A stretch of DNA of 63,891 bases, counting the filler, from Chrysochromulina tobinii (Eukaryota), in the NCBI GenBank assembly GCA_001275005.1. It is 8 parts of 8 records of this genome, joined end to end, with 100 filler letters (N's around TTAATTAATTAA, not from the genome) between each part and the next. Parts side by side here need not be neighbours in the genome. Positions count along the whole stretch, not along the records: positions 1 to 20,497 come from JWZX01000780.1; positions 20,598 to 26,020 come from JWZX01000781.1; positions 26,121 to 34,180 come from JWZX01000782.1; positions 34,281 to 38,293 come from JWZX01000785.1; positions 38,394 to 40,334 come from JWZX01000786.1; positions 40,435 to 50,244 come from JWZX01000787.1; positions 50,345 to 62,663 come from JWZX01000788.1; 1 more part is not named here. One strand, written 5' to 3'. Below the pieces are notes generated by a model. The model was given only the letters and a program-made list of their open reading frames with translations. It was not told the DNA's origin and ran no database searches. The position numbers were made by a program, and so were the translations under genes. Position 1 is the first letter of the stretch. The number at the start of each line of letters is the position of its first letter. Positions 3,756 through 56,400 of this stretch are shown here, piece by piece.

Positions 3756-4954
3756 CTACACGCTGCTCATGCTGCTCGACGAGAACATGCCAAACCGGAA
3801 AGAGGCGCGCACCTCGAGCCAATCTCGTGCCGCGCACCGATCGTCGGCAACCATGCGCGTGATGCGGTCCTGCTTCGCATGCTCACGTGCCGCGTAGTCA
3901 CCCACGCGTCTCCACCGACGGAGCGGATCTGCCTTGAGCGCCTGCTGCACCTGATGAGGGAGGCAATCAGCATGCAATCAGTCTCCACCGACGGAGCGGA
4001 TCTGCCTTGAGCGCCTGCTGCACCTGATGAGGAAGGCAATCAGCATGCAATCAGTCTCCACCGACGGAGCGGATCTGCCTTGAGCGCCTGCTGCACCTGA
4101 TGAGGGAGGCACTCAGCGGCGCTTGAGAGACATGCTGAGGGCAGGTCCGAGGACGATTGAAACTCAGAGAGTAACAGTAGCCCATCGGGGGGGTAGCCCG
4201 ATCGGGGGGGAGGGGGTCGGCAGCTCGGGCAGCGCTGTACCTGATGCTGCCAGACGGACACATAGTCACCAGTGGCCGCTGAGAGCTCTGAAGGCTTTGG
4301 AGCGGCCGGCGCCAAGGGCGGCGTGGGCAGCAGGGGCGTCTCGCATCGCGGCATGCCAAAGGGCGTCGTGCCAAGCTCCAGTCGGGTGAGCGTCCGTGAC
4401 TTGATACTGCTCCCCCTCTTGTGTGCATCTGCCGCGGCCGAATGCGGCCGGCTGCGATCGTGGCTGTTGAGCATGTCGGGCAGGCTGGTAGTGCTCGCGC
4501 TCGAGGTGAGAACTCGGCCGACCCGGCTCACAGTACGCGTCTGTGTCGTTGGCGTGAGCAGCTCCGCCAGCGCCTTGCGGGTCTTGTCACTCGCCTTGTC
4601 GGGCGTCGTCGGTGGCGCGGCTCCCTGGTGGTTCTCCTTATTCTCCTTGTTGACCTTGCTCCGAGCCCGAATGATGGAGTCACTGCCCATCTCTACCGTC
4701 GTTGGCGTCACCCACGCATTGGGCAGAACTGGCGCGGACGCGGTGTGCGGCATCTGCGGTGTTGAAGCGAACTGGACGATCTTGGCCACGGAGGAGCTCG
4801 CGCCTGTCGGCGTGCTCGCAATGCATCGAACGCGCGCGATCGGCGTTGGCGCGCTGGCTAGGTTGCGGCTCGTTGGGATCCGCGCGACGACTGGGGCGAC
4901 TGGCAGTGAGTTCGGAGCCTCGCGCTCAGGCAGCACGAAGAATGGCGACTTCAT
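3756..4954 (-). CDS. Hypothetical Pro/Ser/Thr-rich protein, 2 exons (intron 3951-4240)
   Basis: ORF 4040-4954 joins via CAG|GTACAG...CCCTCATCAG|GTG to VQQALKADPLRRWRRVG..., stop 3756-3758; contains KEN motifs. Confidence 0.55.
3908..4110 (-). repeat. Three tandem 73-bp units = 3' splice site + first ~42 nt of exon 2
   Basis: Units start at 3908, 3981, 4054. Confidence 0.95.
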
Positions 4955-5220
4955 GAGAAGAGGGACGAGGAAAGATCTTCTTTTGAATTCGGCTTTCGCG
5001 ACTGCGAGTTTGAGAGCGTCCCGTGTTCCAGTTCACAGCCAATGGTCACACTGTCGCACGAGTGTAACGAGATTGTTGAGAGATGGGGGAGGGTGGCAGG
5101 TTAGCGACGGAATCAAAAATAGACACCGTTCACAGCCGATGGTTTGGACGAAAGGGCTGGGAGGCCGCCTCCCTCTTGACTGTCCCTACAGCCGGCATCA
5201 CGACCGACTCCGAGTCGACG

Positions 5221-8200
5221 ATGCTGCTGCGCGCGACCAGCACCCGCTCGGAGGATGTAACCCGGCCGCCGCTGGCGCAGCGCTATCGATCTTCACCTCT
5301 CGCCTCGCCAGAGATGCCCACGGGCATCACCAACATCATCTCCAACGAGGCTGCCGAGCGCTTCTCCTTTTACGGCATGAAGTGCATCCTCGTCGTGTTC
5401 ATGACCTCGCATCTTCGCGACGCGCAGAGGCAGCCGGCCTATCTGAGCGAGAAGGTCGCACTCGTCTACTACCACTCATTCACCAGTGCCGTGTACCTGA
5501 CCCCGCTCGGCGGAGCGCTGCTAGCCGAGGCGGTGCTCGGCAAGTACCGCACGGTCGTGTACCTGTCGCTCGTGTACTGCGGAGGGCACCTCGCTCTCGC
5601 AATCGACGAGACGCGCACCGGTGATGGCCGCTGGGCGCACACGTAGTTGATTGCGTCCGATGGCCACGGATGGCCGCTGATTGCGTCGCGATTGGCGCTG
5701 AGAGCCGCTGATTGCGTCTGATTGCCGCTGAGGGCGCCCTCGCTCGAGCAGGCCTCTTCGTCGGCCTCGCCCTCGTCGCCCTCGGCTCCGGCGGCATCAA
5801 GCCGTGCGTCAGCGCCGTGTTGGGCGACCAGTTCGGCGAACTCAACCAGCACTTGGTGAGCGTCGCCTTGATTGCACTTGATTGTGTACTGGTTTGCTCT
5901 GGATTACAGTGGATTGGTGAGCTCGGCCTTGGTTGAACATGGTTGCTCTCGATTGCACTTGATTGCCTCAGGTGAGCACGGCCTTTGGGTACTTCTATCT
6001 GGCCATCAATCTGGGCGCCTTCACCTCGACGTTACTCACACCCTACCTTCTCGAGCACGCGGGCTCGCATGCGGCCTTTGGCGTGCCAGGTGGTTGCACT
6101 TGATTGCACTCGTTTGCACTTGAGTGTACTTGACGTGGTAGTGCTCACCACGGCGCCCTCGCCCACACACAGGCATCGCCATGGCTCTCGCAACGCTCGC
6201 CTTCTGGAGCGGCCGTCACAAGTACAGACCTCTGATGACCTCTGATGACCTCTGATGGCATGCTGATTGCCATACCGCCGCCGTAGGTACACGCACGTGC
6301 CCCCGAATGCGAGCCGCTTCCTGATGACCTCTGATGACCTCCCTCATCAGGTACACGCACGTGCCCCCGAATGCGAGCCGCTTCCTGCGCAGCACTTGTA
6401 GCCCCGAGGGTGCCCGCGCGCTGTGCAAGCTGATCGGCTTGTTTGGCTTCTTCGCGGTGTATTGGAGCTTGTATGACCAAAGTGGCTCGGCGTGGGTGCT
6501 GCAGGTGAGCGTCTCGGATGGCCCCTGATGGCCTCTGATGGCCTCCCTCATCGCATGCATGTGAGCGGCTCGGAGTGCTTCTGATGGCCTCTGATGGCCT
6601 CTGATGGCCTCTGATGGCCTCCGATGGCCTCTGATGGCTTCTGATGGCCTCTGATGGCCTCTGATGATCACTGATGGCCTCTACTGGCAGGCAGAGAAGT
6701 TGGACAGAAGGTTCCTGGGTGTGGAATGGCTCCCCTCCCAAATCGGGGCGATCAATCCTCTCTTGATCCTCACACTCGTACCGCTCCTGCACGGCGCCGA
6801 CTTTGGCACCCCTCTCGGCGCCGTGTCGGGCGTGGGGCGCTCGGCGTTCTTCGCACGGCTCGGGCTCGTACCACGACGGCGCGTGCGGCTGGTAGGGCTC
6901 TACGAGCTCGTCGCCCGACACGGCGTTCGCGTTACGCCGCTGCGTAAGATCGGCTGCGGGCTCGTGCTCTGCGCGTGCTCGTTCCTGATCCCGCTGCAGG
7001 TGGAGGTTTGGATGGAGGCGAGCGGGTACAATCATAGCGCTGCAGCTCTGGCCGAGTGCAACGGCGCTGTTGGCGACGGCGGCGGCGGCGGTGCGCGTGG
7101 CTGTGGGCTCAGGCCCAGCATCGCATGGCAGGTGGTTGCCTTTGATCACGTGCCCACTGATTGCCCTTGATGAATACTGCTCAGTGAGGCCGAGCATCGC
7201 GCGGCAGCTCCTCGCTGATCTCGTGCCCCCTGATTGCCCTTGATGAATACTGCTCAGTGAGGCCGAGCATCGCGCGGCAGCTCCTCGCTGATCTCGTGCT
7301 CACGCTCGTTGATCTCGTCTCGATCTCGTCTGATCTCGTCTCGATCTCGTCTCGGTTTCGTCTGATCTCGTCTCGATCTCGTCTTGGTTTCGTCTGATCT
7401 CGTCTCGATCTCGTCTCGGTTTCGTCAGCTCGTCGCCTATTTCGTGCTCACTCTTTCGGAGGTGCTCGTCTCCGTCACTGGCCTCGAGTTCAGCTACACG
7501 CAGGCGCCACCGGCCATGAAGAGCATGGTGATGGCATTCTACCTCAGCGCGGTCGCCGCAGGCAATCTGGTCACCGTGGCCATCAATGCGAGCATCCTCA
7601 ACGCTGACGGCTCGAGCAGGTGAGTGCCGCTGCTTGCCGCTGATGGACTACGATGGCTTCTGATTGCTTCTGATAGCATCTCGAGTTCATCCCTGACTGC
7701 ATCTCTGATTGCCTCTGATGTGGCAGTTGGAGTGAGGTCGAGTACTATCGGTTCTTCACACTGATTGCTTCTGATTGCTTCTGATTGCTTCTGATTGCCT
7801 CCGATGTGGCAGTTGGAGTGAGGTCGAGTACTATCGGTTCTTTACACTGATTGCTTCTGATTGCCTCTGATGTGGCAGTTGGAGTGAGGTCGAGTACTAT
7901 CGGTTCTTTACACTGATTGCTTCTGATTGCTTCTGATTGCTTCTGATTGCCTCTGATGTGGCAGTTGGAGTGAGGTCGAGTACTATCGGTTCTTTACACT
8001 GATTGCTTCTGATTTACTTCTGATTGCTTCTGATTGCCTCTGATGTGGCAGTTGGAGTGAGGTCGAGTACTATCGGTTCTTTACACTGATTTCTTCTGAT
8101 TGCTTCTGATTGCCTCTGATGTGGCAGTTGGAGTGAGGTCGAGTACTATCGGTTCTTCACACTGATTGCTTCTGATTGCTTATGATTGCTTCTGATTGCT

Positions 8201-8560
8201 TCTGATTGCCTCTGATGTGGCAGTTGGAGTGAGGTCGAGTACTATCGGTTCTTCACGCTGCTCATGTTCGTCACCGCCGCCGCCTTCGTGCCGTACGCCG
8301 CGTGCTACAAGGAGAAGAGATACTTTCAAGGCCATGGGATGGACGAGATAGAGACGAGATCGGACGAGATGGAGACGAGAACAGACGAGATAGAGACGAG
8401 ATTTCAAGGCCATGGGACGGACGCGGACGCGGACGGTCCCGAGGCGGGGGCGGGGCCGCAGCCGACGTGGCGATCGTCGCAGCCGCTGCTGCCCGATGAG
8501 GTCAAGCTCGCGACGACTCGACCACGAGACGCTATAGTCGCTCGACACGAGACGCTTTAG
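5221..8560 (+). CDS. POT/PTR family proton-dependent oligopeptide transporter (multi-exon; start may be 5083)
   Basis: [12 protein letters not shown] (ExxERF), [41 protein letters not shown] motifs; introns ~5621-5751, 5856-5971, 6090-6172, 6222-6350, 6505-6690, 7132-7428, 7620-8223. Confidence 0.92.
7715..8260 (+). repeat. Seven copies of acceptor + exon start (GATGTGGCAG|TTGGAGTGAGGTCGAGTACTATCGGTTCTTYAC) separated by variable numbers of CTGATTGCTT decamers
   Basis: Direct reading; only the last copy (exon from 8224) continues into the ORF. Confidence 0.95.
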
Positions 8561-9186: not shown

Positions 9187-11115
9187 TCAGGTCGCCGAAT
9201 GCGGCGACACGCTGCCAGCATTGTCTCGCGCCGAGATCACGACCTCGCGGAGGGGGATCACGGCCTCCCCACTGGTGCTTCTCCCCCGAGCGTCGCTGGA
9301 CCTGCCCGGAGAGAGCGTCGTCCCGGGCGTTGGAGAGGGCCCCCCTCTTGAACGAGGCGAGAGGAGCGCGGCTCCGAGCCCAGTGCCGGAGCGTGTCATC
9401 TCGCGCTCGAGTGCCCACGACGGCGGCAGTGAGGCGGAGAGGCTAGGCGACGAGGTGACCTGATGAGGGAGCTCATCATGTACCATCAGAGGCGATCAGA
9501 GGCAATCAGATGCGATCAGAGGCCATCAGAGGCGTACTGAGGAGCGTTGGGAGGTGGCCAATTAGGGAGGCAATTAGGGAGGCGATCAGGGAGGCGTACT
9601 GAGGAGCGTTGGGAGGTGGCCAGCGTGGCCAGCGTGGCTACATGCATCTGGGACGAGATCAACGAGGGCGAGGTGCATCCGGGTCGAGATTGCATCTGGG
9701 ACGAGATCGACGATGGCGAGGTGAAGGATTCGGGTCCTCTGTTGAAGGCGAACTCGGAGCCAAGCTCCATCTCCGTCTCCAGCCGCGCGCGCTCGACGAT
9801 TGCAGCTGATGAGAGAGGCAGTTGGGGAAGCAATTAGGGAGGCCATCAGGGAGGCAATTAGGGAGGCAATTAGGGAGGCAATCATCTCCGTCTCCAGCCG
9901 CGCGATATCGACGATTGCAGCAGCAGCGAGATGCGAGCACATCCCGACAGAGGCCATCCGAGGCCATCCGCGGCCATCCGAGGCCATCCGAGGCCATCCG
10001 AGGCCATCCGCGGCCATCCGAGGCCATCCGAGGCACTCACCAGCGCGGATCTCATTATTAGGGAGGCAATTAGGGAGGCAACTAGGGAGGCACTCACCAG
10101 CGCGGATCTCCCGCTCGCGCGCCACTCGATGGCACAGCCCCGCATTCTCGGCCTGCAGCCGCGAGAGCTCGTGCTGCAGAGTTTCGTTACCCTTGCGCTG
10201 CTCTTCACACTCTCTCCGATAACGCTCCTGCTGCTCGCCCAGCCGATCGATCTCGCGCGTGAGGTGCGAGACGAGGAGATGCGTTCGCGCCGCCTCCTCG
10301 TCCGCCGCCGCGACGGTGCGCCCACGACGGCGCTCCTCGTCCGCGGCTGCCGAGGCCGTCGCCGCCGACGGCGACGCGCCGGCTGGCGGCGCCGTGTACT
10401 CGCACACGTGGGGTGGTGGCGGCAGGTCCTCCGCGGGGGCCATCCCCGCCGCCGCCGTCACCGCCGCCCCCATCCCCGCCGCTCCGCCGCCGCCGCCGAG
10501 GCGGCTGTCTGCGGCGGCGGCATCGGCGGCGTGGCCAGTCCAGCGCTGCAGGTGCCCCTGGATGCTCTGCAGGATCGACGACGTGTTCTCGCGCAATCTC
10601 GTCTCAAGGGCGCGCTTCTCATCGAGGACGGCGCCGAGCTGCTTCTGCAGCTTGTTCACGATGTACTCCTGCTCCTGCTCGAGCTGGATCTCAAGGTGGA
10701 CCTTCTCTTCCTTGACCTTCTGGAGCTTCTTGGTCAGCGCATTCGTGATCATCTCCTCCTCCACCTCCACCTGCCGCGCGAGCTCCTCCTTCTCCTGCTG
10801 GAGCGCCTCGAGCCTCTTCATGAGTTTGTTGGTGATGTACTCCTCCTCCTGCTCGGCCTGGACCTGCAACTGCCCCTGCAGCTGCGTCTGACGGTCGAGC
10901 TGCACCTGCAGCCGCGCTCGAGCTGATTTCTCGCGCTCGAGCTGAAGGAGCGCGCTCTGCAGCGCCTGCTGAAGCTCAGGCACAGACGCGAGCGCCAAAG
11001 GCACCGAAGCGAGGCTATCGGTCTCGGAGGCGGAGTCGGGCGCCTCTGACGGCACGGCAGACGACTCCGACGTGACCCGTTGCACAAGGTCAGGACGAGA
11101 CTCAGGCGTCGACAT
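9187..11115 (-). CDS. CCDC6/H4-like coiled-coil protein (DUF2046), introns 9806-10097 and 9460-9599
   Basis: AEQEEEYITNKLMKRL..EEEMITNALTKKL..LEQEQEYIVNKLQKQL repeats typical of CCDC6; splicing keeps the frame to the stop at 9187. Confidence 0.8.
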
Positions 11116-11291: not shown

Positions 11292-13880
11292 ATGCGGACG
11301 CATATGCTTCTAGCTCTGCTCACATTGCGTGCCGCCTCGGGCTTCTACCTGCCTGGCGTGGCGCCTCGCGAGTACCTGGATGGAGAGAAGGTCGAGGTTA
11401 AGGTCAACAAGCTCACATCTACCGTCACGCAGGTGCGCTCTGCCCACGGCCAGCGCCTTCGCCATGGCCGGCGCTCTGGCCTGCTATCGACGCGTACGCC
11501 TGCACCCGCCCTGAACAGCTGCCGTACGACTACTATAAGCTTGCCTTTTGCAAGCCCAAGGAGCTCATCAACGCGGTCGAGAACCTCGGCGAGGTCCTTC
11601 ACGGCTCGGTGATCCAGAACTCGCCGTATCAGCTCTTTGCGCAGAAGCAAGACTTCAAGGTGCTCTGCAAACAGGATCTGGACGCGAAGCAGGTGGCCGA
11701 GTTTGGGAAGCGGATTGGCGAGGAGTACCGCGTGCAGCTCATCATGGACAACCTGCCCGCGGCCACGCGCATGATCTCCGAGCTGCCCAATGGAAAGACG
11801 GTCTACATGTACGACCGTGGCTACAGGTTGGGCTTCATGGGAGCCAAGGAGTTTCCTGGCACGATCCCAAAGACGCCGTACCTGAACAACCACCTGCGCT
11901 TCATCATCAAGTACCACAAGGACGCCAAGTTCGAAGGCGCGCGCCTCGTCGGCTTCGAGGTCGAGGCCTTCTCCGTGAAGCACACCTACAAAGGCAAGTG
12001 GGGCGTGGACGCGAGCCTCACCTCGGTGCCTCTGTCGCCGGACCTGCCACCCCAGCCGATCGTGGAGGCGGGCGAGTACATCTTCACGTACGACGTGCAG
12101 TGGGAGGAGTCACCTATCCGGTGCGACTCGCGATGATCGCGCCTAGACCTCCCCACATGGGTGATTGCCTCTCTCATTCTCTCATTGCATGCTGATTGCG
12201 TGGGGTAGGAGTCACTCGTCCGGTGCGCCTGATTGCCTCTTCTCATTGCATGCTGATTGCGTCGGATTGCGCTGCATGCAGGTGGGCTTCGCGCTGGGAC
12301 CTCTACCTCTACATGGGTGACGACCAGATCCACTGGTTTTCGATCCTCAACTCGCTCGCCATCGTGCTGCTGCTCACGGGTACGCGCTTCGGCTCGGATG
12401 GCCTCTGATGGCCTCAGATAGGTTCTGAGTGGCTCTGAGTGGCTCTGAGTGGCTCTGAGTGGCTCTGAGTGGCTCTGAGTGGCTCTGAGTGGCTCTGAGT
12501 GCGTTTCCATTTTCCGCCCTCATCAGGCATCGTGGCGATGATCATGATGCGCACGCTGCGGCGCGACCTCAACCGTTACAACTCGGTCGAGGAGAAGGAG
12601 GAGTTGGCAGACGAGAGTGGCTGGAAGCTCGTACATGGCGATGTGCTGCGCCCGCCGCCGCTGCCCCTGCTTCTCTCGTCGTCGGTGGGGACTGGCATGC
12701 AATTGCTCTTTATGGCCATCATCTCGATCTTCTGCGCGATGCTCGGTTTCCTCTCTCCCGCCAACCGCGGCGGCCTTCTCACTGCGACGCTGCTGCTCTT
12801 CGTGTTGATGGGCGTGCCTGCGGGCTACTACGGCTCGCTCCTCTACAAGTCCATCAAGGGCTCGCAGTGGAAGTCGTTGACCGCTTCGACCGCCCTCCTG
12901 TACCCAGGCGTCATCTTCCTCCTCTTCTTCTGCCTCAACCTCTTCATATGGGGCTGCGGCTCGTCTGCCGCTGTGCCCTTCACCACCATGCTTGCCCTGA
13001 TCTGCATGTGGTTCTGCATCTCCGTCCCCCTCGTCTTTCTCGGCGCGTTCTTCGGCTTCCAGACGACCCTGCCCGAGCCGCCGGTGCGCACACGATCGAG
13101 ATCGCACGCCAAGGACTGCCGCATGCAAGTGCTCACCACGGCGCCATCTCTTCCCCACAGGTGCGCACGAACGAGATCGCACGCCATGTACCGCTGCAGG
13201 CGTGGTACATGGGGTTGCCGTGCACGATGGCGGTGGGCGGCATCTTGCCGTTCGGCGCCGTGTTCATTGAGCTCTTCTTCATCATGAGCTCTGTCTGGCT
13301 GCAGCGCTTCTACTACGTCTTCGGCTTCCTCGCGCTTGTGATCTTCATCCTGCTGCTCACGTGCGCCGAGATCTCGATAGTCCTCTGCTACTTCCAGCTC
13401 TGCAACGAGGATTATCACTGGTGGTGGCGCTCCTTCCTAAACTCGGGCGCGGCAGGCGGCTACTTGCTTGGCTACTCCGCCATCTACTTCCATACACAGC
13501 TTGACATGGTCGGTTTCACACCGACGCTCCTCTACTTTGGGTGTGAACGCCCCCCGTGTGCTGTGGAAGATTGCCTTTGGGTCTCCCCCGCGTGCCTCTC
13601 TGATAGCCCCGATCACCTCCCTCCTCAGGCACACGTTGATTGCCACTGATTACCACTGATTGCCACTGATTGCCACTGAGTGCCACTGATTGCACCCCTC
13701 CTCAGGCACATGTTGATTGCCACTGATTCCACTGATTGCCACTGATTGCCACGGATTGCACCCCTCCTCAGGTACATGTTGATCGCCGCCATCATCTTCG
13801 CGCTGATGACGGGTACAGTTGGTTTCATGGCCGCGTGGTGGTTCGTGTGGAAGATCTTCTCGGCCGTTAAGGTCGACTAG
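11292..13880 (+). CDS. TM9SF: Transmembrane 9 superfamily (EMP70/nonaspanin) protein
   Basis: Signal peptide then [61 protein letters not shown]-terminal KVD; introns 11433-11518, 12122-12282, 12380-12526, 13084-13160, 13541-13771. Confidence 0.95.
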
Positions 13881-15195
13881 GACCGACACGAGCCCAAGCA
13901 GAGGCAGCTCTCTCGATTAGGAAACCGGAGGCCCTCTCCCGCTCGCAATAGCCTCGCCTAGCGCCGTGAGGCCTTGCGTGGAGCGTGCATGCAAGTGCTC
14001 ACCCCGGCGCCTCTCCTAGCGCCGTGAGGCCTTGCGTGGAGCGTCCCGCGGGGCGCTGTCTGTGTTGCGGTGTCGCGGCTTGCATCTCGGAGATCGCACC
14101 TCGGAGATCGCATCTCGTGTGCCCCAATCGTCGGAGATCGCATCTCGTGCGCCCCAGTCGAGCCGCCGTCGTGTATCACACCGCGGCGCCTGCAACGTAC
14201 TCACTGTGCTCTCACACAGCGACGCTCACCCCCACGCCCCACAGTGCCTCGCCGTCGACCGGGCGCGCGACGCACTGACCACGCTGTGTCCTACTAATGC
14301 TGACACTGCGCACCACTCGGCGGGCGTGTCGGCTGTCGCGACGGTGTCGCGCCGGTGTTCGGTGGAATACGATCCGATCGCAACGTCCCCGGGCGCTCGC
14401 GGAGACGCGTGGGGCACGGGCGGGAGCCGGTCCGCGACTACTTAGTTCGTCATCATAGTATTAGACTCTTGACGATGTGACCACATAACCTCGAGGGCGC
14501 GGGCGAGGTGCTGGGGACAGACAGACGAGAGTGAGTGTCCGGTCTTAGATGAAACAGAGACGGCGGAAACGGAGCGTCGGAGCCCCAGCCCGGGCCGAGC
14601 CCGAGGCACAGACCGCCTCCGGATGGCGCTCGGCGGGCCGGACCCGCGGCGCTCGCCGGATAGCCGTTATGATTACTAAGCGACACCGTCTCCGCAGCGG
14701 TCTGACACTGTGCGCTCCTATGACACGCCGCACGAGGTCGAGGACCGGACAACGTTTCAAACAAGCATGTTTCAAGCATGTGGGTGACTGAGTGCGCGTG
14801 CCCGCGCAACCGGAACCGCTCTCCTGCTTCCATTATGGCTGTTCCTGCTACGCCACTTCAAGCACGATTGTACCATTGTACGATTGTAGTTTGTACGAAC
14901 GGGCGCAGAGCGTACTCCGAAGTTCCACGTTCCACCGTCGGTGCGGAGTATATGGACTTTGGATGGACCGTGTGGCAGTTGCGCGCCGTCGTGGACAGCC
15001 GGACACGGCGATCCGCCGGCGCGCCGACCCGAGCGCGCGCCGTCGTGGACAGCCGGACACGGCGATCCGCCGGCGCGCCTCGACCCGAGCGCGGTCTACC
15101 CTCGGCCCTCTAGAGATGAGGTGTCGCACTTCAGTGCCTCTGTGCTCCGCAGAGTGATGCATGGCGTGCCATAGGATTGTCGACGTGCCCGCGCT

Positions 15196-17461: not shown

Positions 17462-20400
17462 ATGTCGGGCTCGCATCTCAGCCGCGACTTCTTCGAGCTT
17501 ATGTGCGCGCACACCCCAGCTCCGGCCAGTGCACGGCCAGGCACTCAACGCGAGGCGATGAAGTAACGGGACGCACAGACAGCGGGTGCGCTCACGCGCA
17601 CCAATGGGAGTGTCCTCACGCGCGCGCCATCGCCTGCTGCTATGTGCGCAGCAAGAGCATCGGCGAGTGCAAGTCGAAGCAGGAAGAGGATAAGATCTTG
17701 GCCTCGGAGGTGTCCACGCTCAAGCAAATCTTCACCACGCAGCTCACTGATAAGAAGTTGAAGGAGGCGCTCATGCGGGTCATGTATGCAGAGATGCTCG
17801 GCCACCACGCCGATTTCGGCCACATCCACGCGGTGAACATGACGCAAAAGACGAATCTCGTCTCCAAGCGCGTTGGCTACATGGCGAGTGCTGCCTGCCT
17901 CCACCCGGGCCATGAGCTGGTCACGCTCGCCGTCAACACCATGCGACGCGACGTCGCGTCGTCGAACCACGTCGAGGTGTGCGCGGCGCTGATCGCGATC
18001 CCGAAGCTGGTGAGCAAGGAGTTCCTCCCCGCGCTGCTCCAGCCGGTCCTCGCCCTCCTCGACCATGCCATGGAGGCCATTCGTAAGAAGGCCGTGATGG
18101 TGCTGCACAAGTTCTACACCATTGAGCCCGAGAGTATGGCGAGTCACACGGATAAGCTGCGGCGCGCGCTGTGCGACAAGGACCCGGCGGTGATGGGCGC
18201 GGCGCTGTACATCTTGCATGCGATGGCCGAGCAGACTCCCGCGCATCACAAGGACCTTGTGCCCTCGTACGTTTCGATCCTCAAGCAGATCACCGAGCAT
18301 CGGCTGCCCTCCACGTTTGATTACCATCGCGTGCCAGCTCCATGGATCCAGATCAAGCTGCTCAAGCTGCTGGCCCTGTTGGGCACGAACGACCAACGCG
18401 CGAGCGAGGGCATGTACGAGGTGCTCAATGACGTGATGCGCCGCGCCGACACGGGCATCAACATCGGATACGCGGTCATCTACGACTGCGTGCGCACGGT
18501 CACAACGATCTATCCGAATATCCCACTGCTCGAGGCGGCGGCGGGCCACATCGCCCGCTTCGTCCAATCGGAGAACCACAATCTCAAGTATCTCGGGATC
18601 AAGGCGCTCGCCCAGATTGTGCAGGTACGGACGAACCCACGCCCTAATCCAAATTAGGCAGGCCATGCGCCCGAGCTGCCCGGCCTGCAGCACGTGCTCA
18701 ACACGGCGCGCACCATCGCCTCTCTCGCCTCTCTCTCTCCTCTCCCCACAGGTCAACCAAAAGTACGCGCTCGACCACCAGATGGTCGTCGTCGAGTGCC
18801 TCGAGGACCCTGACGAAACTCTCAAGCGGAAGACCCTCGACCTGCTCTTCGCGATGACGAACGCGTCCAACATCATCTTCGTGGCCGACACACTCCTCGG
18901 CCACCTGCGCTCGACAACGGACCAAACCTTCCGAGGCGGCCTCGTCGACCGCATCACGCAACTCGCCGAGCGGTCAGCGCAACTCCCTACAGCGCACTGC
19001 CGAGCAACTCCCCACAGCGCACTCCCGAGCGGCGCCCACCATGCGAGCGCTCACCACGGCGCCCGGCTCTCCGCGCCTCGGCCCGCTCTCAAGCGTGCGA
19101 GCGCTCATCACGGCGCGCATTCCTCCCCTGCCCCCCTCCCCTGCCCCCCAGGTACGCGCCCGACAACACGTGGTACATTCGGACCATGAACGCGGTCTTC
19201 GAGCTCGGCGGCGAGTTAGTCCGGCCCGACATCGCCCACAACTTGATGCGCCTGATCGCCGAGGGCTCCGGCGAGGATGAGGCCGCTGACATGGCCATGC
19301 GCAAGTACGCGGCGTCGCAGTACTATGAGCTGCTCGAGAAGCCAGTGCTGCCCGACAACCTCGTGCAGGTGCTCTGCTGGGTGCTGGGTGAATATGGTTA
19401 CCTGGTCGACGGCACCCAGGTCCTCGACATAGCGACGCGCTTGTGCGGCGTCATCAAGCGCCAGTTGACGCACGTCTCGACCCGCAATTGGGTCTTGGGC
19501 GCGCTCGTGAAGCTCGTCGCCCAGCTTGGCCAGGCCCCTTCCCAGGTGACCGAGCTCGCCCAAAAGTACTCTCGGTCCGCGGACGTGACTCTCGCAAAGT
19601 ACGCGAACGAGCTGCTCGTATTCAGGGAGCACATGGACGTGATGAAGGCGGTGCTGCCCGTGGACGCGTCGTGTGAGGACCTCGAGACCGATCGCTCGCT
19701 TTCCTTCCTCAACGGCTATGTGCAGGTGACGAAGCCCTGATGGCCTCTCTTGATTGCCTCTGATTGCAGGTGACGAGACCCTGCTGGCCTCTCTTGATTG
19801 CCTCTGATAGATTGCAGGTGACGAGACCCTGCTGGCCTCTCTTGATTGCCTGCTTCCCCCTTCTTCTCAGTCTCTCCCCTTGTTTGGCTCACGATCACTG
19901 ATGACCACTGATGACCACTGATGACCACTGATGATCACTGATTGCTTCCCTCATCAGTCTCTCCCCCTTGTTTGGCTCACAGGCTGCCGTCGCCAACGGC
20001 GCCCAGCCCTACCTCAAGCGCGGTCAGCGCCCGGCAGACCTCGAGGCTGCGGCAAAGCGGGCCGCGGAGATCGCCGCCAAGCAGCCGGCCCAGCCGACGA
20101 TGCGCTTCGAGGAGTATGAGCGAGCACAGCTGCCCGTGATGTCGGCGCCACCAGCGGCGCCGGAGCCATCGGCGCCTGCCGTCGAAGAGACGCCACCACC
20201 CCTCTCGAGCGGCCTCAACACCTCAGGCGTCAAGCAAATGTGGGGCGCCGAGGGCTTCATGGGCGACAAGCCCGCGCCCGCGCCCACCCCCGCACAGGTC
20301 TTCACACCGGCTGGGGCCCCTCCGGCGGGGGGGTACCCCGGGAGCGCGCCGCAGGCCCCCCCTCGCCCCGCCGCGCCACCGGAGAAGAGTGCCGAACAGA

Positions 20401-40334: not shown

Positions 40335-40434
40335 NNNNNNNNNNNNNNNNNNNNNNNNNNNNNNNNNNNNNNNNNNNNTTAATTAATTAANNNNNNNNNN
40401 NNNNNNNNNNNNNNNNNNNNNNNNNNNNNNNNNN

Positions 40435-44958: not shown

Positions 44959-44995
<37 letters not shown>

Positions 44996-45321: not shown

Positions 45322-45408
<87 letters not shown>
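45309..45408 (+). repeat. (CAG)n microsatellite, ~33 units with one CGG interruption
   Basis: Direct reading. Confidence 0.97.
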
Positions 45409-45411
<3 letters not shown>

Positions 45412-46695: not shown

Positions 46696-49158
46696 TCACT
46701 TCTGGCTACTCTCTAAACTGTTACTATCCGGATACATGGCCCCCTTCATGAGCGAAAGCCCGTCAATAACGCCAAAGTCGGCATCGGTGGCCGCGCGCAC
46801 GCTCGCGAGATCGACGCCAGATGCAATCTCGCGCAGCGTGAGGCCGGAGCCGTCGGGTGCGACGTCGAAGACGCCGAGTTCGGTGATGAGCATCGACACG
46901 CAGCGTGCGCCGGTGAGGGGCAACGTGCAGTGGCGGAGCACCTTCGAACGCCCTCTCTTGTCGCAGTGCTCCATCGTGACGATCACCTTGGCGGGAGAGG
47001 AGACGAGATCCATCGCGCCGCCCATGCCTTTGACGAGCTTGCCAGGGATAAGGTAGTTGGCCATGTCGCCGTTAGCAGCGACCTGCGCCCGAGCCGAGGG
47101 TGGTCGCAATCAGAGGCGCAATCTGAGGCGCAATCAGAGTCGCAATCAGAGGCGCAATCAGAGGCGCAATCAGACCTGCGCCCGAGCCGAGGGTGGTGAC
47201 GTCGCAGGAGCAATCAGTCTCAATCAGAGGCGCAATCAGAGGCGCAATCAGAGGCGCAATCAGACCTGCATCGAGCCGAGGATGGTCACGTCGCAGTGGC
47301 AATCAGTCGCAATCAGAGGCGCAATCAGCGGCGCAATCAGACCTGCATCGAGCCGAGGATGGTCACGTCGCAGGAGCAATCAGTCGCAATCAGAGGCGCA
47401 ATCAGAGGCGCAATCATGGGCTATCAGAGTCCATCAAGCCTGAGCCCGAGCTGAGGTTGGGCCTCATCAGGCGCAATCAGTCGCAATCAGAGGCGCAATC
47501 AGAGGCGCAATCAGACCTGCATCGAGCCGAGGATGGTCACGTCGCAGTGGCCGCCGCGGATCATTCCAAAAGAGGCATCCGCGCTGAAGTACGAAGCGCC
47601 GGGCAGTGCAGTCACCTGAGTAGGGACGTACTCCGATACACTCAGCCGCAATCAGCCGCAATCAGCCGCAATCAGTCGCACTCAGCCACCATCAGATGCA
47701 ATCAGCCGCCATCAGAGGCACTCAGCTCACCGTCTGCTTGCCCGCGTTGATCAGATCGGCATCCTCTTGCCCCCTTGTGGGGAAAGGGCCGACGCCGAGC
47801 ATCCCGTTCTCGCTCTGCAACGTGATCGAGACGCCTTCGGGAATGAAGTTGCTCACCTGATGAGGGAAGCCATCATAGGTCATCAGAGGTCATCGGAGGT
47901 CATCGGAGGTCATCAGAGGTCATCAGAGGTCATCAGAGGTCATCAGAGGTCATCAGAGGTCATCAGAGGTCATCAGGCGCTCACGAGGGTCGGCAGCCCG
48001 ATGCCCAGGTTGACGTAATCTCCGTCAGCGAGCTCGAGCGCCGCGCGCCGAGCAATCCGCTCTCGGTCCGGCGTCATGGCGTCCCCTTCGGTCCGTTCAC
48101 CGGCGAGGGTGAGGCGCTCGATACAACGCTCGGACGGTCCCTGCACAATCCGCTCGACGAAGAGGCGCCATCAGCGGGCGCAATCAGATGGCGTAATCAG
48201 CCGGCGCAATCAGCCGGCGCCATCAGCGGCGCCATCAGCGGGCGCCATCAGAGGGCGCAATCAGTGAGGTGCAATCAGAGGGCGCCATCACCTGCACGAT
48301 CCGGTCGACGAAGATCCCCGGCGTGTGGATGTCGTTTGGGTCGAGCGTCCCCGCGGGCACGAGCTCCTCCACCTGCCTCGAGGAGGCAATTAGTGGCAAT
48401 CAGAGGCAATTAGTGGCAATCAGAGGCAATTAGAGGCAATCAGGAGCGGGCACGAGCTCCTCCACCTCCGCGATGGTGATCTTGCCCGCCGTCGCCACCG
48501 CCGGGTTGTGATTACGCGAGGTCATGCGATAGATAAGGTTGCCCTCGGTGTCGCCCTTCCACGCGCGCACGAGGGCAAAGTCGCCAGGCAGCGCCCGCTC
48601 CATGATGTACTCCTTACCCTCGAAGAGCTGCGACGCGCGTGGCGTCGAGCCCTTGATGACCTTGCCCGAGCCATCGGATGCGTATCGAACTGGCATGTTG
48701 CCGTGATGAACGAGGGTTCCGACACCGGTGGCGGTGAAGAAGGCCGGGATGCCCGCGCCGGCCGCGCGCATCCGCTCGGCCAGCGTGCCCATCGGCACCA
48801 GCTCGACATCGATCTCGCCGCTCAGGAATTGCTTCTCGAAGAGAGCGTTCTCGCCCACGTACGAGCCGATCATCTTGGAGATCTGCTTGCCCTGGAAGAG
48901 CAGGCCGAGGCCACGCTCGCTCGTGCCCACATTGGAGCTCACCACCGTCAGGTCGCCCACACCCTTCTTTTGCAGCGCAGCGATCAGGTTCTCAGGCACG
49001 CCCGTAAGGCCGAAGCCGCCGACGAGCAGCGTCGCGCCCGACGGCACGTCGGCGACGGCATCGGCGGCCGACGCGAAGACCTTGCCGCCGACCGGCACCG
49101 TCGACGAGCGATGCCGTCGCGCTGCGGCCAACGTCGTCATCAAGGCGCGACGCACCAT
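46696..49158 (-). CDS. OXCT1: Succinyl-CoA:3-oxoacid CoA transferase (fused A+B), mitochondrial-type presequence, 5 introns
   Basis: [52 protein letters not shown] (catalytic Glu), [10 protein letters not shown]. Confidence 0.95.
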
Positions 49159-50443: not shown

Positions 50444-53400
50444 ATGGTGAAGCCCCCCTTGTCGATGAAGACAAAGCTCGACGTGGCCTCCAAGGCTCCC
50501 AAGCTCTTCATCCCGGGGAAAGCTTTCCCCGTGCCTTCAACAGCAGCGCCCGTGCCCGTGCCAACACCGGCATCAGCACCTTCCCGATCCGCTGGAGGGG
50601 CCGCCGTCACCGCACTCGGGCTCGCCGCCAACGCGGAGAAGGCGGCAGCGGAGAAGGCGGTAGTCATGGATGTGGCACCTGGCCGTGGATGGGACTACAT
50701 CCAAGGTAAGGGTGCAGCTGTGCTTCGACACCTCGAGACAGGTCATGCTGTTGGTCTTTCGGATGGCTCAAATGGCTATGTACATCTTAAGCAGGGTGAT
50801 ACAGCGCCTGAACTGGTCGAGTTTCCCCTCGGCACTCAACCACAGGATTGGAGTGCCGAAGAGCGCAGATTGCTTGGCATTCTCATGACTTCGCCAGGCG
50901 CTCATCCGCTGAGCACATCGTTGGGCTGCACCACCACGTTTGGTCGTTGGAAGTTCACTATCGAGGACAGTGGCCTTGTCATGCTACATAATTCGTCTCA
51001 AGGTGAGTCACCGGAGAGAACGCGCTGTCTCGCAGAGCATGGATACGAACGACCACGGAGCGCTCACCACCTAACGGAAATTGTGGCCAAACATGCAGCT
51101 TTGCAGGGGAAGACCGCCGGCACCAACGCGCCGGCGCTCGCGCTCGCGATCGCGACTCCGAGCCTCTTCGGAGGCGCACCGGCGCCAGCTGCCGGCCTTT
51201 TCAGAAGCACACCGGCCGCCGGCCTTTTCAGAAGCACACCGGCGCCAGCTGCCGGCCTTTTCAGAAGCACAACGGCGCCAGCTGCCGGGTTTTTCGTAGC
51301 CCCGGCGCCAGCTGCCGGCCTTTTCGGAGGCGCACCGGCGCCGGCTGTCAACCCCTTCAACGCGCCAGCCGCCGGCCTTTTCGGCGGCGCACCGGCGCCA
51401 GCCGCCGGCCTTTTCGGAGGCGCACCGGCGCCAGCCGCCGGCCCTTTCGGAGGCGCGCAGGCGCCAGCTGCCGGCCTTTTCGTAGCCCCGGCGCCAGCCG
51501 CCGGCCTTTTCGGAGGCGCACCGGCGCCAGCTGCCGGCCTTTTCGGAGGCGCACCAGCGCCAGCCGCCGGCCTTTTCGGCGGCGCACCGGCGCCAGCTGC
51601 CGGCCTTTTCAGAAGTACAACGGCGCCAGCTGCCGGGGTTTTCGTAGCCCCGGCGCCAGCTGCCGGCCTTTTCGGAGGCGCACCGGCGCCGGCTGTCAAC
51701 CCCTTCAACGCGCCAGCCGCCGGCCTCTTCGGAGGCGCACCGGCGCCAGCTGCCGGCCTTTTCGGAGGCGCACCGGCGCCAGCTGTCAACCCCTTCAACG
51801 CGCCAGCCGCCGGCCTTTTCGGCGGCGCACCGGCGCCAGCCGCCGGCCATTTCGGAGGCGCACCGGCGCCAGCCGCCGGCCCTTTCGGAGGCGCACAGGC
51901 GCCAGCTGCCGGGTTTTTCGTAGCCCCGGCGCCAGCCGCCGGCCTTTTCGGAGGCGCACCGGCGCCAGCTGCCGGCCTTTTCGGAGGCGCACCAGCGCCA
52001 GCTGCCGGCCTTTTCGGCGGCGCACCGGCGCCAGCTGCCGGCCTTTTCAGGAGCACACCGGTGCCAGCTGCCGGGTTTTTCGTAGCCCCGGCGCCAGCTG
52101 CCGGCCTTTTCGGAGGCGCACCGGCGCCAGCTGTCAACCCCTTCAATGCGCCAGCCGCCAGCCTCTTCGGAGGCGCACCGGCGCCAGCCGCCGGCCTTTT
52201 CGGAGGCGCACCGGCGCCAGCTGCCGGCCTCTTCGGAGGCGCACCGGCGCCAGCTGCCGGCCTTTTCGGAGGCGCACCGGCGCCAGGTGCCGGTTTTTTC
52301 GTAGCCCCGGCGCCAGCTGCCGGCCTTTTCGGAGGCGCACCAGCGCCAGCTGCCGGCCTTTTCGGAGGCGCACCGGCGCCAGCCGCCGGCCTTTTTGGAG
52401 GCGCACCGGCGCCAGCTGTCAACCCCTTCAACGCGCCAGCTGCCGGCCTCTTCGGAGGCGCACCGGAGCCAGCTGTCAACCCCTTCAACGCGCCAGGATC
52501 TCCGCCGACCTTCACCTTTGGAAGTGCCTCGATAACATTTGGCGCGCCCGCGCCCGCGCCCGCTGTCGGCTTCGGCGACTTTGGCGGTGGTGCCGCTGGC
52601 TTCGGCGATGGTGCCGCCGGCTTTGGCGGTGGTGCCGCCGGCGTTAGCGGGACGGCCGCGGCCGGCACGGGCGACCCACCGTATAAGCCGGTGCAGGAGA
52701 GGGAGCAAGTCGCGGGCGCGCCCGGCCAAGTGCAGGTATACCAGTACTGCTCGATCACCAAGATGCCTCAGTACGGAGCCAAATCGTTGGAGGAGCTCCG
52801 GTTCGAGGACTACGCCAAGGGTAATACGGGTGCAGTCGTACTTCGGGTGGAGGGCGCGGGTGCTTACGACCATGTCCAAGGTGAGTACAAGGTGGACGTC
52901 GCCGCTGGCCCTTGCGCTGCTGAGTGTGCAGATAAGGCGACTCGTGTTTGCGTCGAGTTTGATGGCGGGAAAGGAAGGAACAACTACATCGCTTCGACTG
53001 AGCTCAATCTGACAAGGCTCGCCGGCGGGTACCGGATGGGCGACCGCGTGACGACTCGCGTCGTTTGTGGTAAAGTCGCGGTTGGGGAGGCAGGCACGGT
53101 GATTGGCCCTTGCAGCTCTCAGGTGGACGATAAGGCGACTCGTGTTTGCGTCGAGTTTGATGGCGGGAAAGGACGGTTGAACTACATCGCTTCGACTGAA
53201 CTCCGTCTGACAAGGCTCGCCGGCGGGTACCGGAGGGGCGACCGCGTGACAGCTGGCTTGAACATGTACCCAGTCGCGGTTGGGGACGCAGGCACGGTGA
53301 TTGGCCCTTGCACTGCTGAGTGTGCAGATCAGGCGAATCGTGTCTGCGTCGAGTTTGATGGTGGAAAGGGACGGATCAACTGCCCTGCTTCGATTCTGAT

Positions 53401-56400
53401 GGAGCCGTTGCCACCTCGATTAAGCCAAGCCTTGACAGACAATCATGTGATGTTGAATCAGCTCGACCTGGGCGTGATCGATTGGATGGTAGCCTCGTAC
53501 AAGAAATGCGAATCCGATCAGGAGCGTGATTTTGTGCTCAAGATTATTCTGCAGACCCTCGTCCATGGGTGGCCCCAGTCTTCCAAGCAGGCGGACTGTG
53601 GACGTTACAAGTACTGGAACAGACTGGCACTCGTGCCGAGGAGTCGGCAAGCATTGCAAGCAGCGCTACGGGAGTACTCCGTTAACTACAAACGAGAGTT
53701 ACAAACGAGAGTCTCCGATTACACAGAATTCCTTCATAGTGCGGATAACCAATTCTACCAACAGGTGGAAGCGTGGGCACGGGAGGATGCCATCCTACGC
53801 GAGGCCAAGGAGAAGCAACGGCAGGCGCTCGAGGAGAAGAAGCAGGCCGAAATCAAGGAGCGGGAGGAACGCAGGAAGGCGGTTGAAGCGAGGCAGGCGA
53901 AAGGGAATGTTTCGTCAAGGCTCGAGGACGCTAACCCGGGGAAGAAGAAACCCTGGAGTGTGGATGAATTGGGTTCGGAGCTCTTCCGCCTTGCATTCGA
54001 GGGCGGAGATACGCGACAGCTCGAGCCCCTTCTCAACAAGGTCAGCAACCTGAGCCTCAAGAAGCGGACCAAGGTGCGCGAGTGGGTCGACGATTCGGGT
54101 GCGACGCCGCTGTATGCGGCCGCGTACAACGGCAACGTCGACGCACTCAAGCTGCTCCTACGTGCGCAGTTTGCGCCCGACATGTTCCACACCAAAGATG
54201 GCGTGACGCCCCTCTACGCGGCGTGTGACCGTGGTCATCTGGCGACGGTGAAGGAGCTCGTCAAGGGGCGTGCGGACCCGATGCTCAGCATGCGGGACAC
54301 CGCCTTCACCCCCTTGACCATTGCCGAGACCATCGCCGAGACCAAGGGGACGAAGAGTGTGCACCAGTCGATCGTGGAGCTGCTGCGTGCACACGTGAAC
54401 TCGCCGCAGGTGCTTACGGCAGCGCCGACCAAAAGCTCCGCTGTGCCGACCATGAAGACCCTCACGAAGCTTTTCGAGGACGAGGGTGAGGAGGGGGTCA
54501 AGAACAAGAAGCAACTCGAGGAACTGAAGTTGCAACTCGAGCAAGTCGGGAAGAACAAGAAGCAACTCGAGCAACTCGGGAAGAACAAGTTTGAGAAACA
54601 AAGGGCTTGGGGAGGAGGAGGAGTGATCGAGGAGGAGGGGGAGGAGGGGGAGGAGGGGGAGGAAGCGGAGGGCAGGAAGGAGGGGGAGAACAGGGAGGAC
54701 AGGGAGGACAGAGAGGAGGGGGAGGGCAGGGAGGAGGGTGGTTTCTTCACAAGCGTCGAAACACGTTCGAATGGAAAGGAGGGGGAGGAGCAGCAGCCAG
54801 AGGAGAGCCACTTTCATGTGGAGCAGCAGAGCATCGGGGAGGCAGAGCGTGAGGTGGAGCGAGTCGCTCATCGTCCGGCCTTGAGCTCGGGATTGAGCTC
54901 GGGATTGAGCTCAGCCACGCTCGACAGTGCGACCGTGCGTCCGGCCGAGTCCTTCGACTCCCTCATCACGGCCCTTCACTCTAGTGCCTCAAGCTCTGAT
55001 GTGTTGCGTGCTGCTCTGAAGCAGCTCGACTGTGTCGACGAGGACAGCCTCGATGACGCTCGCAAGAGGCGCTGGCGTGAGGCTCTGAGTTGGGGCCAAG
55101 AGCACCTCGACCACCTGACGATGAAGGAGGCCACCTCGCTCTACGCCCTGGAATGCGAGCTGCCTGTCGACCTTGGACCGAAAAGCTGCTTCTCGGCCCA
55201 CACCATTCTCGTGGTGGACAATAGCGCCTCGATGCGGCAGGTCGATGTGCACACGGGCACCGCTGAGGGCGACATCTCACGGACAGAGGCGGCTAAGCGG
55301 CTACTCACGACACACTTCCTCAAGACGCAGATCGATGCGGGCGCGCAGGCGCACGAGCGCGTGTCGCTGATCAAGATCCAGAGGGGTTCGACGAGGCCCC
55401 CGTTTGCCCTCTTCCCGCTCGATCATAGCCTCGCTGACCGCATCCTGCGCGCCATCGACGAGCCTCGAGGGCATGGCGACTACCTGCCCGCACTCGAGCT
55501 GCTCGCCAAGCTGGTGGAGCTCACAGCCCCTTTCATGAAGGAGAGCGCCAAGACGTCAATCCTCTTCTTCTCCGACGGCAAGCCCTCCGATCACATCGAT
55601 GAGCGCGTGCTGCCCGCGCACCTACGGCAGGCGCTGTCGGAGCTGCACAAGGCAGTGCAGCGGAGCGGCAGTTACATCGAGCAGTTCTCGCTCCTTGGCT
55701 TTGGCGAGGCCGATGAGGCGATGCTGCGCATGATGGCAGAGGCGTACCCCGCGCGCGTGGCTGAGTACCGCGCCGTGAGCGGGCCAGAGGGGTACAAGGC
55801 GCTTGAGACGGCCGTGACCACCTTTGCCTCGTCTGTGGCGGTCTCTCGCCTCTCGTCGGTCTCAGTGACCTTGGACAAGAAGCAGCGTGCGTTGCGTCGC
55901 GTCGACCGCTCCCTGGGCGAGCGCTTCTACCGTTACGAGGACTGCAAGGTGCTGCTCCCGCCAGAGAGGCTAATTCACCTCCATGATTGCCTCTGATATA
56001 CCCGAACGACTCTGATAGCCTCTGATGACCTCTGGTGGCCTATTGATCGCATCCCTCATCAGGTGCTGCTCCCGCCAGAGAGGCTCGGGGACTTTAACTC
56101 GGATCTGCTCAGGCTGCCTGAAGGGCACACCCTTCTGATCTCGTCCAAGCTACTTGGCCACGGCGGCGAGCGCAACGCGTTCGTAGCCTTCTTCCTGTCC
56201 AAGAACAGCTTCACCACTGAAGATGAGGAGTGGGTGGTCAAGGAGAGTCGACACGAGCGCGCGGAGCACGAAGATGACGACTTTCATCGCAAGGCGCTCG
56301 TCACGCAGCATGCGGCGCACATGCTCGCGAAGCGCTTCAACGACGATGCCGAGGCTCTCGAGATAGACGGCCTTCCGAGCGTCTCGTACATGAACCACTG

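Follow-up and report, generated by a model that had tools for sequence, protein, structure and literature searches.

The stretch of Chrysochromulina tobinii DNA analysed here (the window) comprises 63,891 nucleotides joined from eight records, and includes intron-containing genes for a DUF2046 protein, EMP70/TM9SF, adaptin, a CoA-transferase and a VWA/alpha-kinase protein, as well as a gene that we take to encode a peptide transporter (the exon tested beside its 6222..6350 intron gave no Pfam match). Several of these introns end in the same 10-mer, CCCTCATCAG, and many contain copies of an adjacent exon:

2128..2210, minus strand: GC-donor intron with a 21-nt exon duplication, ending in a second 3' cassette (family B)
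3951..4240, minus strand: probable intron ending in CCCTCATCAG, with two extra acceptor-plus-exon-start tandem copies and a 13-nt repeat across the junction; in frame
6222..6350, plus strand: intron ending in CCCTCATCAG, opening with 5 nt copied from the next exon and containing an internal 37-nt copy
9460..9599, minus strand: RNA-joined intron of the DUF2046 gene ending in CCCTCATCAG, with an internal copy of the upstream exon end and donor
9806..10097, minus strand: intron ending in the variant CTCTCATCAG, with 12-mer filler in common with the 9460 intron
12380..12526, plus strand: RNA-joined intron of the EMP70/TM9SF gene ending in CCCTCATCAG, with no detectable exon duplication
13084..13160, plus strand: RNA-joined family-B intron opening with a diverged next-exon copy
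13951..14044, plus strand: family-B filler flanked by the two copies of a 36-nt stretch, 3' of the TM9SF stop codon; unspliced in RNA contigs of two runs
19726..19982, plus strand: RNA-joined intron of the adaptin gene with an unused internal CCCTCATCAG at 19948-19957
47083..47516, minus strand: RNA-joined intron with repeated upstream-exon copies and 12-mer filler; the exon copy gives the acceptor
47857..47984, minus strand: RNA-joined intron of the CoA-transferase gene ending in CCCTCATCAG, with its GT donor from a 6-nt duplication
48141..48291, minus strand: mirror-type intron, with its donor from filler and its acceptor from a 23-nt copy of the previous exon
48373..48465, minus strand: intron opening with a 20-nt next-exon copy, with a different acceptor, from filler
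55949..56062, plus strand: intron of the VWA/alpha-kinase gene ending in CCCTCATCAG, opening with a perfect 23-nt next-exon copy (25 including the shared AG)

A preliminary description of this DNA had placed CCCTCATCAG at six acceptors, 3951(-), 6350(+), 9460(-), 12526(+), 47857(-) and 56062(+), together with an internal copy near 19948 and the variant CTCTCATCAG at 9806; all were recovered, the variant on the minus strand, which had not been given. That description lacked two further copies, an exact one at 4097(-), the eighth, and one with a single mismatch at 4024(-); they are tandem repeats of the 3951 acceptor plus exon start with a 73-bp unit. The eight exact copies compare with a mean of 0.17 expected in the window and a maximum of 2 in 100 shuffles. 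RNA contigs confirm three of the acceptors, with joins across 9460-9599, 12380-12526 and 47857-47984; a further join (19722->19980) places the internal copy at 19948 inside an intron, and one RNA contig ends at 9805, consistent with the acceptor at 9806. These joins display junction repeats, in that 6-9 letters fit both sides, and one contig reaches 20 nt into the copy at 48465. Joins at 3951 and 6350 were absent from the matches listed. As acceptors, 6350 and 56062 rest on restored reading frames, the longest ORF being 527 versus 171 aa when the 6350 intron is removed and 2951 versus 1778 aa for that at 56062, while the 3951 intron is only in frame (304 versus 306 aa) and is thus the weakest of the six. 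Three unlabelled runs (X15, X16 and X19) yielded no GT-AG join among the matches listed, several of their contigs spanning introns; absence of the introns from these runs was considered and rejected, as it was seen just as missing joins among those matches.

The preliminary description had proposed weighing the frequency of the 10-mer against a position-independent acceptor weight matrix. Such a matrix expects 0.145 occurrences among the 27 window acceptors, 15 of which were hand-picked by sequence and ORF continuity, and CCCTCATCAG ends six of them, a count that none of 20,000 column shuffles reached. In the RNA-joined introns alone it is found at 3 of 12 acceptors against 0.14 expected (19 of 20,000 shuffles).

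CCCTCATCAG is the end of a 20-nt branch-point-plus-acceptor cassette that many introns of this haptophyte have in common and that serves as acceptor. The 31 nt at 3981-3951 have the composition first described for them, a run of filler leading into the 10-mer, and in each run 12-26 contigs derived from other loci align to 3948-3981 and break off at the acceptor. The filler consists of decamers with CTGAT/CTAAT cores, which by consensus are presumably branch-point-like. In the window 119 of 123 such cores lie in sense introns and there is no intergenic array; of the sandwiched filler runs, 178 of 179 are in sense introns. Upstream of the 20-nt search pattern the consensus frequency is 0.3-0.65, with a 10-nt periodicity. 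Intronic repeats of 10-11 bp were reportedly seen in Emiliania by Read et al. in 2013. The inserts are 28-161 nt long (n=26) and, without the shared 20-mer, have a similarity to their best partner of 0.16-0.64 (23 inserts); near-identical full-length copies at unrelated loci were not found among them, and no excess of terminal inverted repeats was seen, 9 of 37 inserts starting with at least 5 nt complementary to their end versus 22% at internal positions. A second 3' cassette, family B, plays the same role as the CCCTCATCAG cassette. Conservation that fades upstream, dissimilar inserts lacking terminal repeats and a second 3' cassette argue against a single master element. The earlier suggestion that the 10-mer is the fixed end of a template is thus retained insofar as the 10-mer appears to be passed on by copying and adjoins the decamer filler without a break, but not as to a single master or an end set by the mechanism. 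In fact, filler stops at variable places where the duplicated exon gives AG, in locus L108 two bases short of it. About 7 unrelated loci contain a linked variant of the family-B cassette, which indicates that copying between loci occurs.

Exon duplications were counted at metagenome loci, 146 of which were reduced to 130 sequences, window contigs included, by removing 11 duplicate or allelic loci and merging 9 groups before counting. This sample represents less than 1% of the genome if the genome is near 59 Mb, the size given for C. tobin in the part of the source available, and because the loci were chosen for the motif, the motif frequency is overstated. At 55 of 116 independent terminal sites the start of the downstream exon is found copied further upstream (score at least 10), compared with 0.0 when the exon comes from another locus and 1 of 113 for exon +60; the remaining 61 sites have no duplication of at least 10 nt. 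The duplication starts at the splice junction and is 10-55 nt long (median 22; 5-6 nt in two window introns). In 37 of the 55 sites the copy directly follows exon-like sequence; 34 of these copies begin with GT or GC, 16 match exactly (the 37 together have 39 mismatches over 902 nt), and retention of the intron breaks the frame in 33. A class in which the duplication provides the acceptor is also present. The copy is preceded by filler in the other 18 sites, and 21 best repeats extend into the cassette, so that intra-intron tandem copying is real (e.g., 3951, 6350, 7620, L080/L108). Head-to-tail boundary copies inside introns are confined to a subset, namely 3908-4117, the same 18 sites and L108, which has three copies versus one in L080.

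An empty allele and a template can be seen together at one locus. L041 carries a 79-nt intron that is absent from L069 (alleles 98.4% identical) and is bounded by a perfect 28-nt duplication (30 with the AG). Apart from one missing decamer, 2 substitutions and 2 extra bases, its filler is the same as an intron lying 440 nt upstream, and it includes a base private to the L041 allele, at which L006 and L069 differ; the filler word is found nowhere else in 490 kb. The distances among L006, L041 and L069 are star-like (16/13/17), and the same duplication-flanked intron is present in all three, which are independent assemblies. The perfect duplication and the allele-specific base, at a site covered by two alleles, favour a gain rather than a loss. 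Of about 10 filler introns that were compared between homologous loci, this is the one with functional presence/absence, seen in a single assembly. In L045, two introns of one same-strand series are linked in this way: the downstream one has an exon-derived 5' part, and the other, 2.8 kb away, contains a copy of it, which fixes the direction of copying; further same-locus intron pairs occur in L070, L137 and L033, the template lying upstream in L070 as in L041. L108 contains a second insert, absent from its homologue L080, with 30 nt identical to an intron about 100 nt upstream and unusable as an intron.

Pairs with at least 3 common private 14-mers make up 15 of 943 at the same locus and strand versus 158 of 92,654 across loci (for the Fisher test one intra-intron pair was removed, leaving 14 of 942), and none of 351 opposite-strand neighbour pairs has common words (p=0.012). 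Of 62 inserts, 11 find their best match within their own locus against 0.68 expected, the 62 being drawn from 109 catalogue rows of which 28 were hand-removed as intra-intron copies or artefacts and others were too short or had no neighbour. One reciprocal pair is counted among these 11, and in several the margin is 1-3 points. Since 51 of the 62 have no same-locus best match, most templates were not found; those that can be traced are themselves introns, several of them in the very gene that holds the insert. Splice sites are not required for insertion, as shown by the unspliced insert in the 3' flank of TM9SF and an antisense in-frame insert in a coding exon of L010.

Taken together, the shared intron ends, the exon copies and the match of the L041 intron to an intron of the same gene suggest that new introns are made by break repair, and the CCCTCATCAG cassette likely spreads as staggered breaks in genes are repaired by copying pieces of existing introns. 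In this model, a staggered DNA break would occur within a gene, gap filling would duplicate 10-55 nt of exon, and error-prone templated synthesis from an existing intron, sometimes of the same gene, would produce the new intron. Decamer filler with its CTGAT/CTAAT cores would make nearly any copied piece spliceable. Survival in coding sequence could follow two routes: either the duplicated exon begins with GT/GC and the copy ends at the AG of the cassette, or the duplication itself brings the AG. Selection would keep the copies that splice and, because survival requires a usable donor and an AG, the fixed end may be regarded as a survival filter on copies of copies. Later rounds may add acceptor-plus-exon tandem copies within introns. 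Templated insertions made by polymerase theta are short error-prone copies from nearby sequence. Microhomology of at least 3 nt is present at 30 of 78 duplication/filler junctions versus 29% in a simulated null (p=0.24), and at the other junction p=0.008 was obtained with a set contaminated by intra-intron copies; traced intron pairs share 4-9 nt at junctions, partly splice consensus. Tandem duplications at breaks with 3' overhangs (PMC8355091) duplicate the overhang. These and polymerase-theta insertions are known from animal cells and not as an intron source, and the microhomology in the alga is not significant.

The template for this repair is probably DNA, slightly preferred over the gene's own transcript. 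A DNA-only route leaves unexplained the placing of 119 of 123 cores in sense introns, the lack of an intergenic array and the lack of opposite-strand sharing. A sub-case of the break-repair model, in which only the unspliced transcript of the gene itself, or its excised intron, serves as template, would fit this sense and same-strand restriction and the finding of templates on either side, upstream in L041 and L070 and 2.8 kb downstream in L045; it is, however, a tentative reading, as the antisense insert in the coding exon of L010, the local copy in L108, which is a detached, frame-broken gene fragment, and the cross-locus lineages speak against it, and sense bias in exons can come from selection alone. 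It is conceivable, though doubtful, that the introns multiply as a population with no transposon involved, those of a gene being pasted via its transcript into breaks of the same gene, with a vocabulary (a branch point per fragment, one ready acceptor) selected for being copied. If true, every new intron could be assigned its source, in a process still under way across the genome.

Variable duplications combined with a constant 3' end resemble the outcome of target-primed reverse transcription. They could thus reflect a diffusing mobile element (an introner, non-LTR-like given the variable duplication length) that carries the 3' splice site and whose fixed RNA 3' end is reverse-transcribed at a nick, with 5' truncation and with repeats scrambled by slippage. 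The family-B variant in unrelated loci and the other-locus contigs that stop at the acceptor agree with this, but such an element is unlikely: there is no conserved body, two different 3' cassettes exist, some inserts have no fixed end, same-locus templates exceed chance 16-fold, the L041 copy is allele-specific and in cis, the window has no intergenic arrays, and family-A patterns had 0 matches in viral contigs. It is less likely still that the introns are old and that slippage or unequal crossing-over copied the flanking exon inward (mirage-type), with the shared acceptor as an optimal splice signal under selection. Intra-intron tandem copying and the motif without duplication in 12380-12526 would be expected in that case, but not the 37 copies that directly follow exon-like sequence and give the donor, the empty allele in L069, the private non-signal words common to separate introns or the 10-mer frequency that the matrix fails to explain. 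A short-read assembly artefact in repetitive introns is very improbable, for although the genomic evidence all comes from assembled contigs, in which tandem copy numbers may be wrong, the same duplication-flanked intron occurs in three independent assemblies, RNA joins display the junction repeats and the L041 insert differs from its template, with 4-6 nt common at the junction.

The break-repair model has its closest counterpart in Daphnia pulex, whose neointrons arise from repair of staggered double-strand breaks (PMC4202315; reviewed in PMC3443670). The available portions of these sources describe newly gained, polymorphic introns whose far end carries a direct repeat of the neighbouring exon, as found in the alga, and later internal repeats; the Daphnia repeats are, however, 4-12 bp (33 cases among 90 introns) and the inserts AT-rich and mostly of unknown source, whereas in the alga the repeats are 10-55 nt, the vocabulary is shared and several inserts trace to a same-locus intron. 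Introners are known from dinoflagellates and other algae (bioRxiv 10.1101/2020.10.14.339549; 10.1101/2022.06.06.494994; PMC12130899). In the accessible text of these papers, they carry one splice site and obtain the other, or both, from the target duplication, and all three arrangements occur in this alga, which also shows filled and empty alleles (one functional case). Described families have, as far as that text goes, a fixed duplication length (3-8 nt), near-identical copies and, in many cases, terminal inverted repeats, and those of a marine Chrysochromulina MAG have 4-bp duplications, no terminal repeats and a carried 5' site. The alga differs in its variable duplication length, differing bodies, lack of terminal repeats and carried site, which is mostly 3'. 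It differs as well from fungal introner-like elements, whose RNA structure is stable and which lack a target duplication. Duplications of introns within one gene, known from fungi, resemble the algal pairs in that near-identical introns in one gene are read as possible within-transcript transposition, but they are rare (82 among 1610 multi-copy introns, with segmental duplications making up half of the 82), and the accessible text mentions no long target duplication (PMC3609843). Amphioxus 'mirages', as partially accessible, share the acceptor-plus-exon-start tandem copies inside introns (in the alga 3951-4106, 7620-8223 and L108) but extend existing boundaries and cannot explain inserts at empty exon sites or filler common to introns (PMC3087553). 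The motif, the long duplications and the same-gene copying are not described in the haptophyte literature covered, which is largely open-access, nor in the accessible parts of PMC4580454, PMC12480563, PMC8469720 and PMC13685798.

According to the available text of PMC3443670 and PMC4202315, it is still an open issue where most newly gained introns come from. In this alga, target duplication, empty allele and template are visible together, and wild populations in public metagenomes make gain rate, template distance and DNA versus RNA template testable. Introner screens that need near-identical copies would likely miss this class of introns, and exon copies at intron starts together with GC donors will cause errors when genes are predicted or reads mapped in such algae.

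Several other resemblances of the filler were pursued and discarded. The putative hairpin CTGATGA...TCATCAG has no structure beyond that of shuffles (z-scores -1.6 to +1.4 in 5 sequences), and a likeness to C/D-box snoRNAs came down to 3 Rfam matches, all below the gathering score, at which no family was found in four loci. A possible telomerase origin (CCCTAA within one 12-mer) and a possible likeness to U2 snRNA were dropped, as most units have neither. The family-B pattern has one match in viral contigs, at a contig end, and this looks like joined host sequence.

The observation that independent introns of the window share the acceptor CCCTCATCAG, made in the preliminary description, is real and not ordinary. 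This 10-mer, the end of a 20-nt branch-point-plus-acceptor cassette (family A), occurs eight times in the window versus 0.17 expected. RNA contigs confirm its use as acceptor at 9460, 12526 and 47857 and leave the internal copy at 19948 unused, while the acceptors at 6350 and 56062 are based on restoration of the open reading frame and that at 3951 on frame only. A weight matrix does not account for the recurrence either: six of the 27 annotated introns (12 RNA-joined and 15 defined by hand) end in the 10-mer versus 0.145 expected, and six is never reached in 20,000 column shuffles. The motif is moreover genome-wide, because RNA contigs of other loci stack on 3948-3981 and stop at the 3951 acceptor (12-26 per run), and at 47905 the loose ends of 3-17 RNA contigs per run reconstruct a decamer array (the filler of ~10-nt repeats with CTGAT/CTAAT cores), the cassette and GT. 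On the minus strand, CTCTCATCAG lies at 848-857, outside all annotated introns and directly behind a plus-strand stop; it may be chance.

As judged from sequence, the source of the window is a haptophyte, since its uracil phosphoribosyltransferase has its closest named relatives in Haptolina ericina and Prymnesium parvum (69%). The G+C content is 62.7%, and 63.4% is given for C. tobin in PMC4580454, which would tentatively point to the genus Chrysochromulina. Distances across the following N-runs are meaningless because these connect separate contigs:
~20499-20597, 26021-26121, 34181-34281, 38294-38394, 40335-40435, 50225-50345, 62664-62764: N-runs with TTAATTAATTAA mid-run, all positions approximate

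A larger sample was obtained by scanning metagenome contigs for the 20-nt cassette, which gave at least 147 stretches, one of them (L075) overlapping the window at 99.2% identity. The 286 cassette matches listed include 160 terminal ones, of which 120 are unique and 116 have sufficient upstream sequence. Among these listed matches, a terminal cassette is followed by GT in 86 cases and by GC in 19, and the start of the downstream exon is copied 50-448 nt upstream in 55 of 116 sites, versus 0.0 (other locus) and 1/113 (exon +60) in the controls. The copy is preceded by exon-like sequence in 37 of these listed sites and by filler in 18; of the former, 34 start with GT or GC and 16 are perfect, with lengths of 10-55 nt. 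A motif-independent search returned three arrangements, in which the duplication gives the donor, the acceptor or both, and a second 3' cassette, GCATGCAAGTGCTCACCACGGCGC followed by pyrimidines and CCCCACAG (family B), plays the same role as that of family A. GC donors would serve 24 of the 109 candidate duplication-flanked introns in the catalogue. The duplications in the window are:
55949, plus strand: duplication at intron start, 23 nt
48465, minus strand: duplication at intron start, 20 nt
2210, minus strand: duplication at intron start, 21 nt
47984, minus strand: duplication at intron start, 6 nt
6222, plus strand: duplication at intron start, 5 nt
48141, minus strand: mirror-form duplication, 23 nt

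The inserts show no single master element. Upstream of the cassette the signal is 10-nt periodic only, insert length ranges from 28 to 161 nt and mutual similarity from 0.16 to 0.64; terminal repeats are not more frequent than at internal positions, and folding of five sequences gave no surplus structure. Individual inserts can instead be traced to other introns. The metagenome loci L041 and L069 are 98.4% identical, and at a site that is empty in L069, L041 carries an intron of 79 nt with a perfect duplication of 28 nt. Its filler is the 3' part of an intron 440 nt upstream, minus one decamer and with two substitutions and two extra bases, and it carries the base that separates L041 from L006 and L069 in that template. 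Because this base is specific to L041 and the three alleles are roughly equidistant, copying in cis after the L041-specific change is the simplest reading, weakened by the fact that the base also fits the common vocabulary. In L045, one intron holds a segment that is the exon-derived start of another intron, located 2.8 kb downstream; the copy comes from the latter, as this downstream intron lies elsewhere in a repeated domain. The region concerned (1-4700, a multi-AAA-like gene with 14 filler units on one strand) is suited to copy tracing. Of two matching introns in L070, 356 nt apart, the downstream one has the cleaner duplication. Filler-unit pairs with at least three private 14-mers in common amount to 15/943 on the same locus and strand, 0/351 on opposite strands and 158/92,654 across loci. 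The best match is local for 11 of 62 inserts versus 0.68 expected, and non-local for 51. Copying between distant loci also takes place, since a linked family-B variant repeats in about seven loci.

In the proposed mechanism, two nicks 10-55 nt apart would leave overhangs, a broken end would prime on an existing intron, copy 30-160 nt with slips and rejoin, and fill-in would duplicate the overhang. Duplication at staggered breaks is known in animal cells (PMC8355091). A simple DNA-template route is opposed by the finding that 119 of the 123 decamer cores in the window lie in sense introns spanning 4,823 bases, and by microhomology that is not significant; the inserts of L010 and L108 speak against a strict RNA-template route. 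Templated break repair, whether from DNA or from RNA, is the origin we favor, with moderate confidence.

Some inserts are not introns. At 13951-14044, a piece of family B that is flanked by 36-nt repeats and lies downstream of a stop codon is kept in RNA contigs of two runs. The 48-nt in-frame insert of L010 contains antisense filler (one of 179 sandwiched runs). L108 is a detached partial copy (92%) of the L080 gene; its insert of 57 nt is missing in L080, and 30 nt of this insert are identical to the adjacent upstream intron and end before the AG. This 30-mer is also present in L134. These three inserts show that insertion needs neither the fixed end nor a start with GT, and we infer that both are imposed by selection in coding exons.

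The proposed route to new introns in the alga resembles break-repair intron gain in Daphnia (PMC4202315). The inserts use splice sites as introners do but are set apart from that class by dissimilar copies, duplications of variable length and a lack of terminal repeats, and the tandem copies inside introns resemble mirages. No account of such introns in haptophytes was found in the openly accessible literature searched.

Other repeats are present as well. A 10-14 nt family with GAGATC/ATCTCG cores (7311-7426, 8342-8402, 9142-9176, 14082-14160, 25914-25955) differs from the decamer filler and is found on both strands, in introns and gene flanks as well as at the ends of exons. The 605-nt intron at 7620-8223 contains about seven acceptor-plus-exon copies in units of 66-96 nt, and an intron-like stretch at 27405-27510 (minus strand) has 20-nt repeats in which exon copies are mixed, and no decamer filler. 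Long coding tandem repeats at 20598-23089 (123 nt), 24195-25615 (108 nt), 40435-42400 (288 nt) and 51162-52475 (33 nt) are presumably armadillo-, Sel1- and FG-like. Similar stretches at 2695-2830 and 3000-3135, ~300 nt apart in adjoining minus-strand reading frames, are likely a partial gene duplication. At the contig end of L001 (1-130), a TGCATGC palindrome marks the junction between plus-strand acceptor-exon copies and a filler intron on the minus strand, either an inverted insertion or an assembly chimera, and the viral-collection contig L147 finishes in a family-B intron end (930-1060), which is probably joined host DNA.
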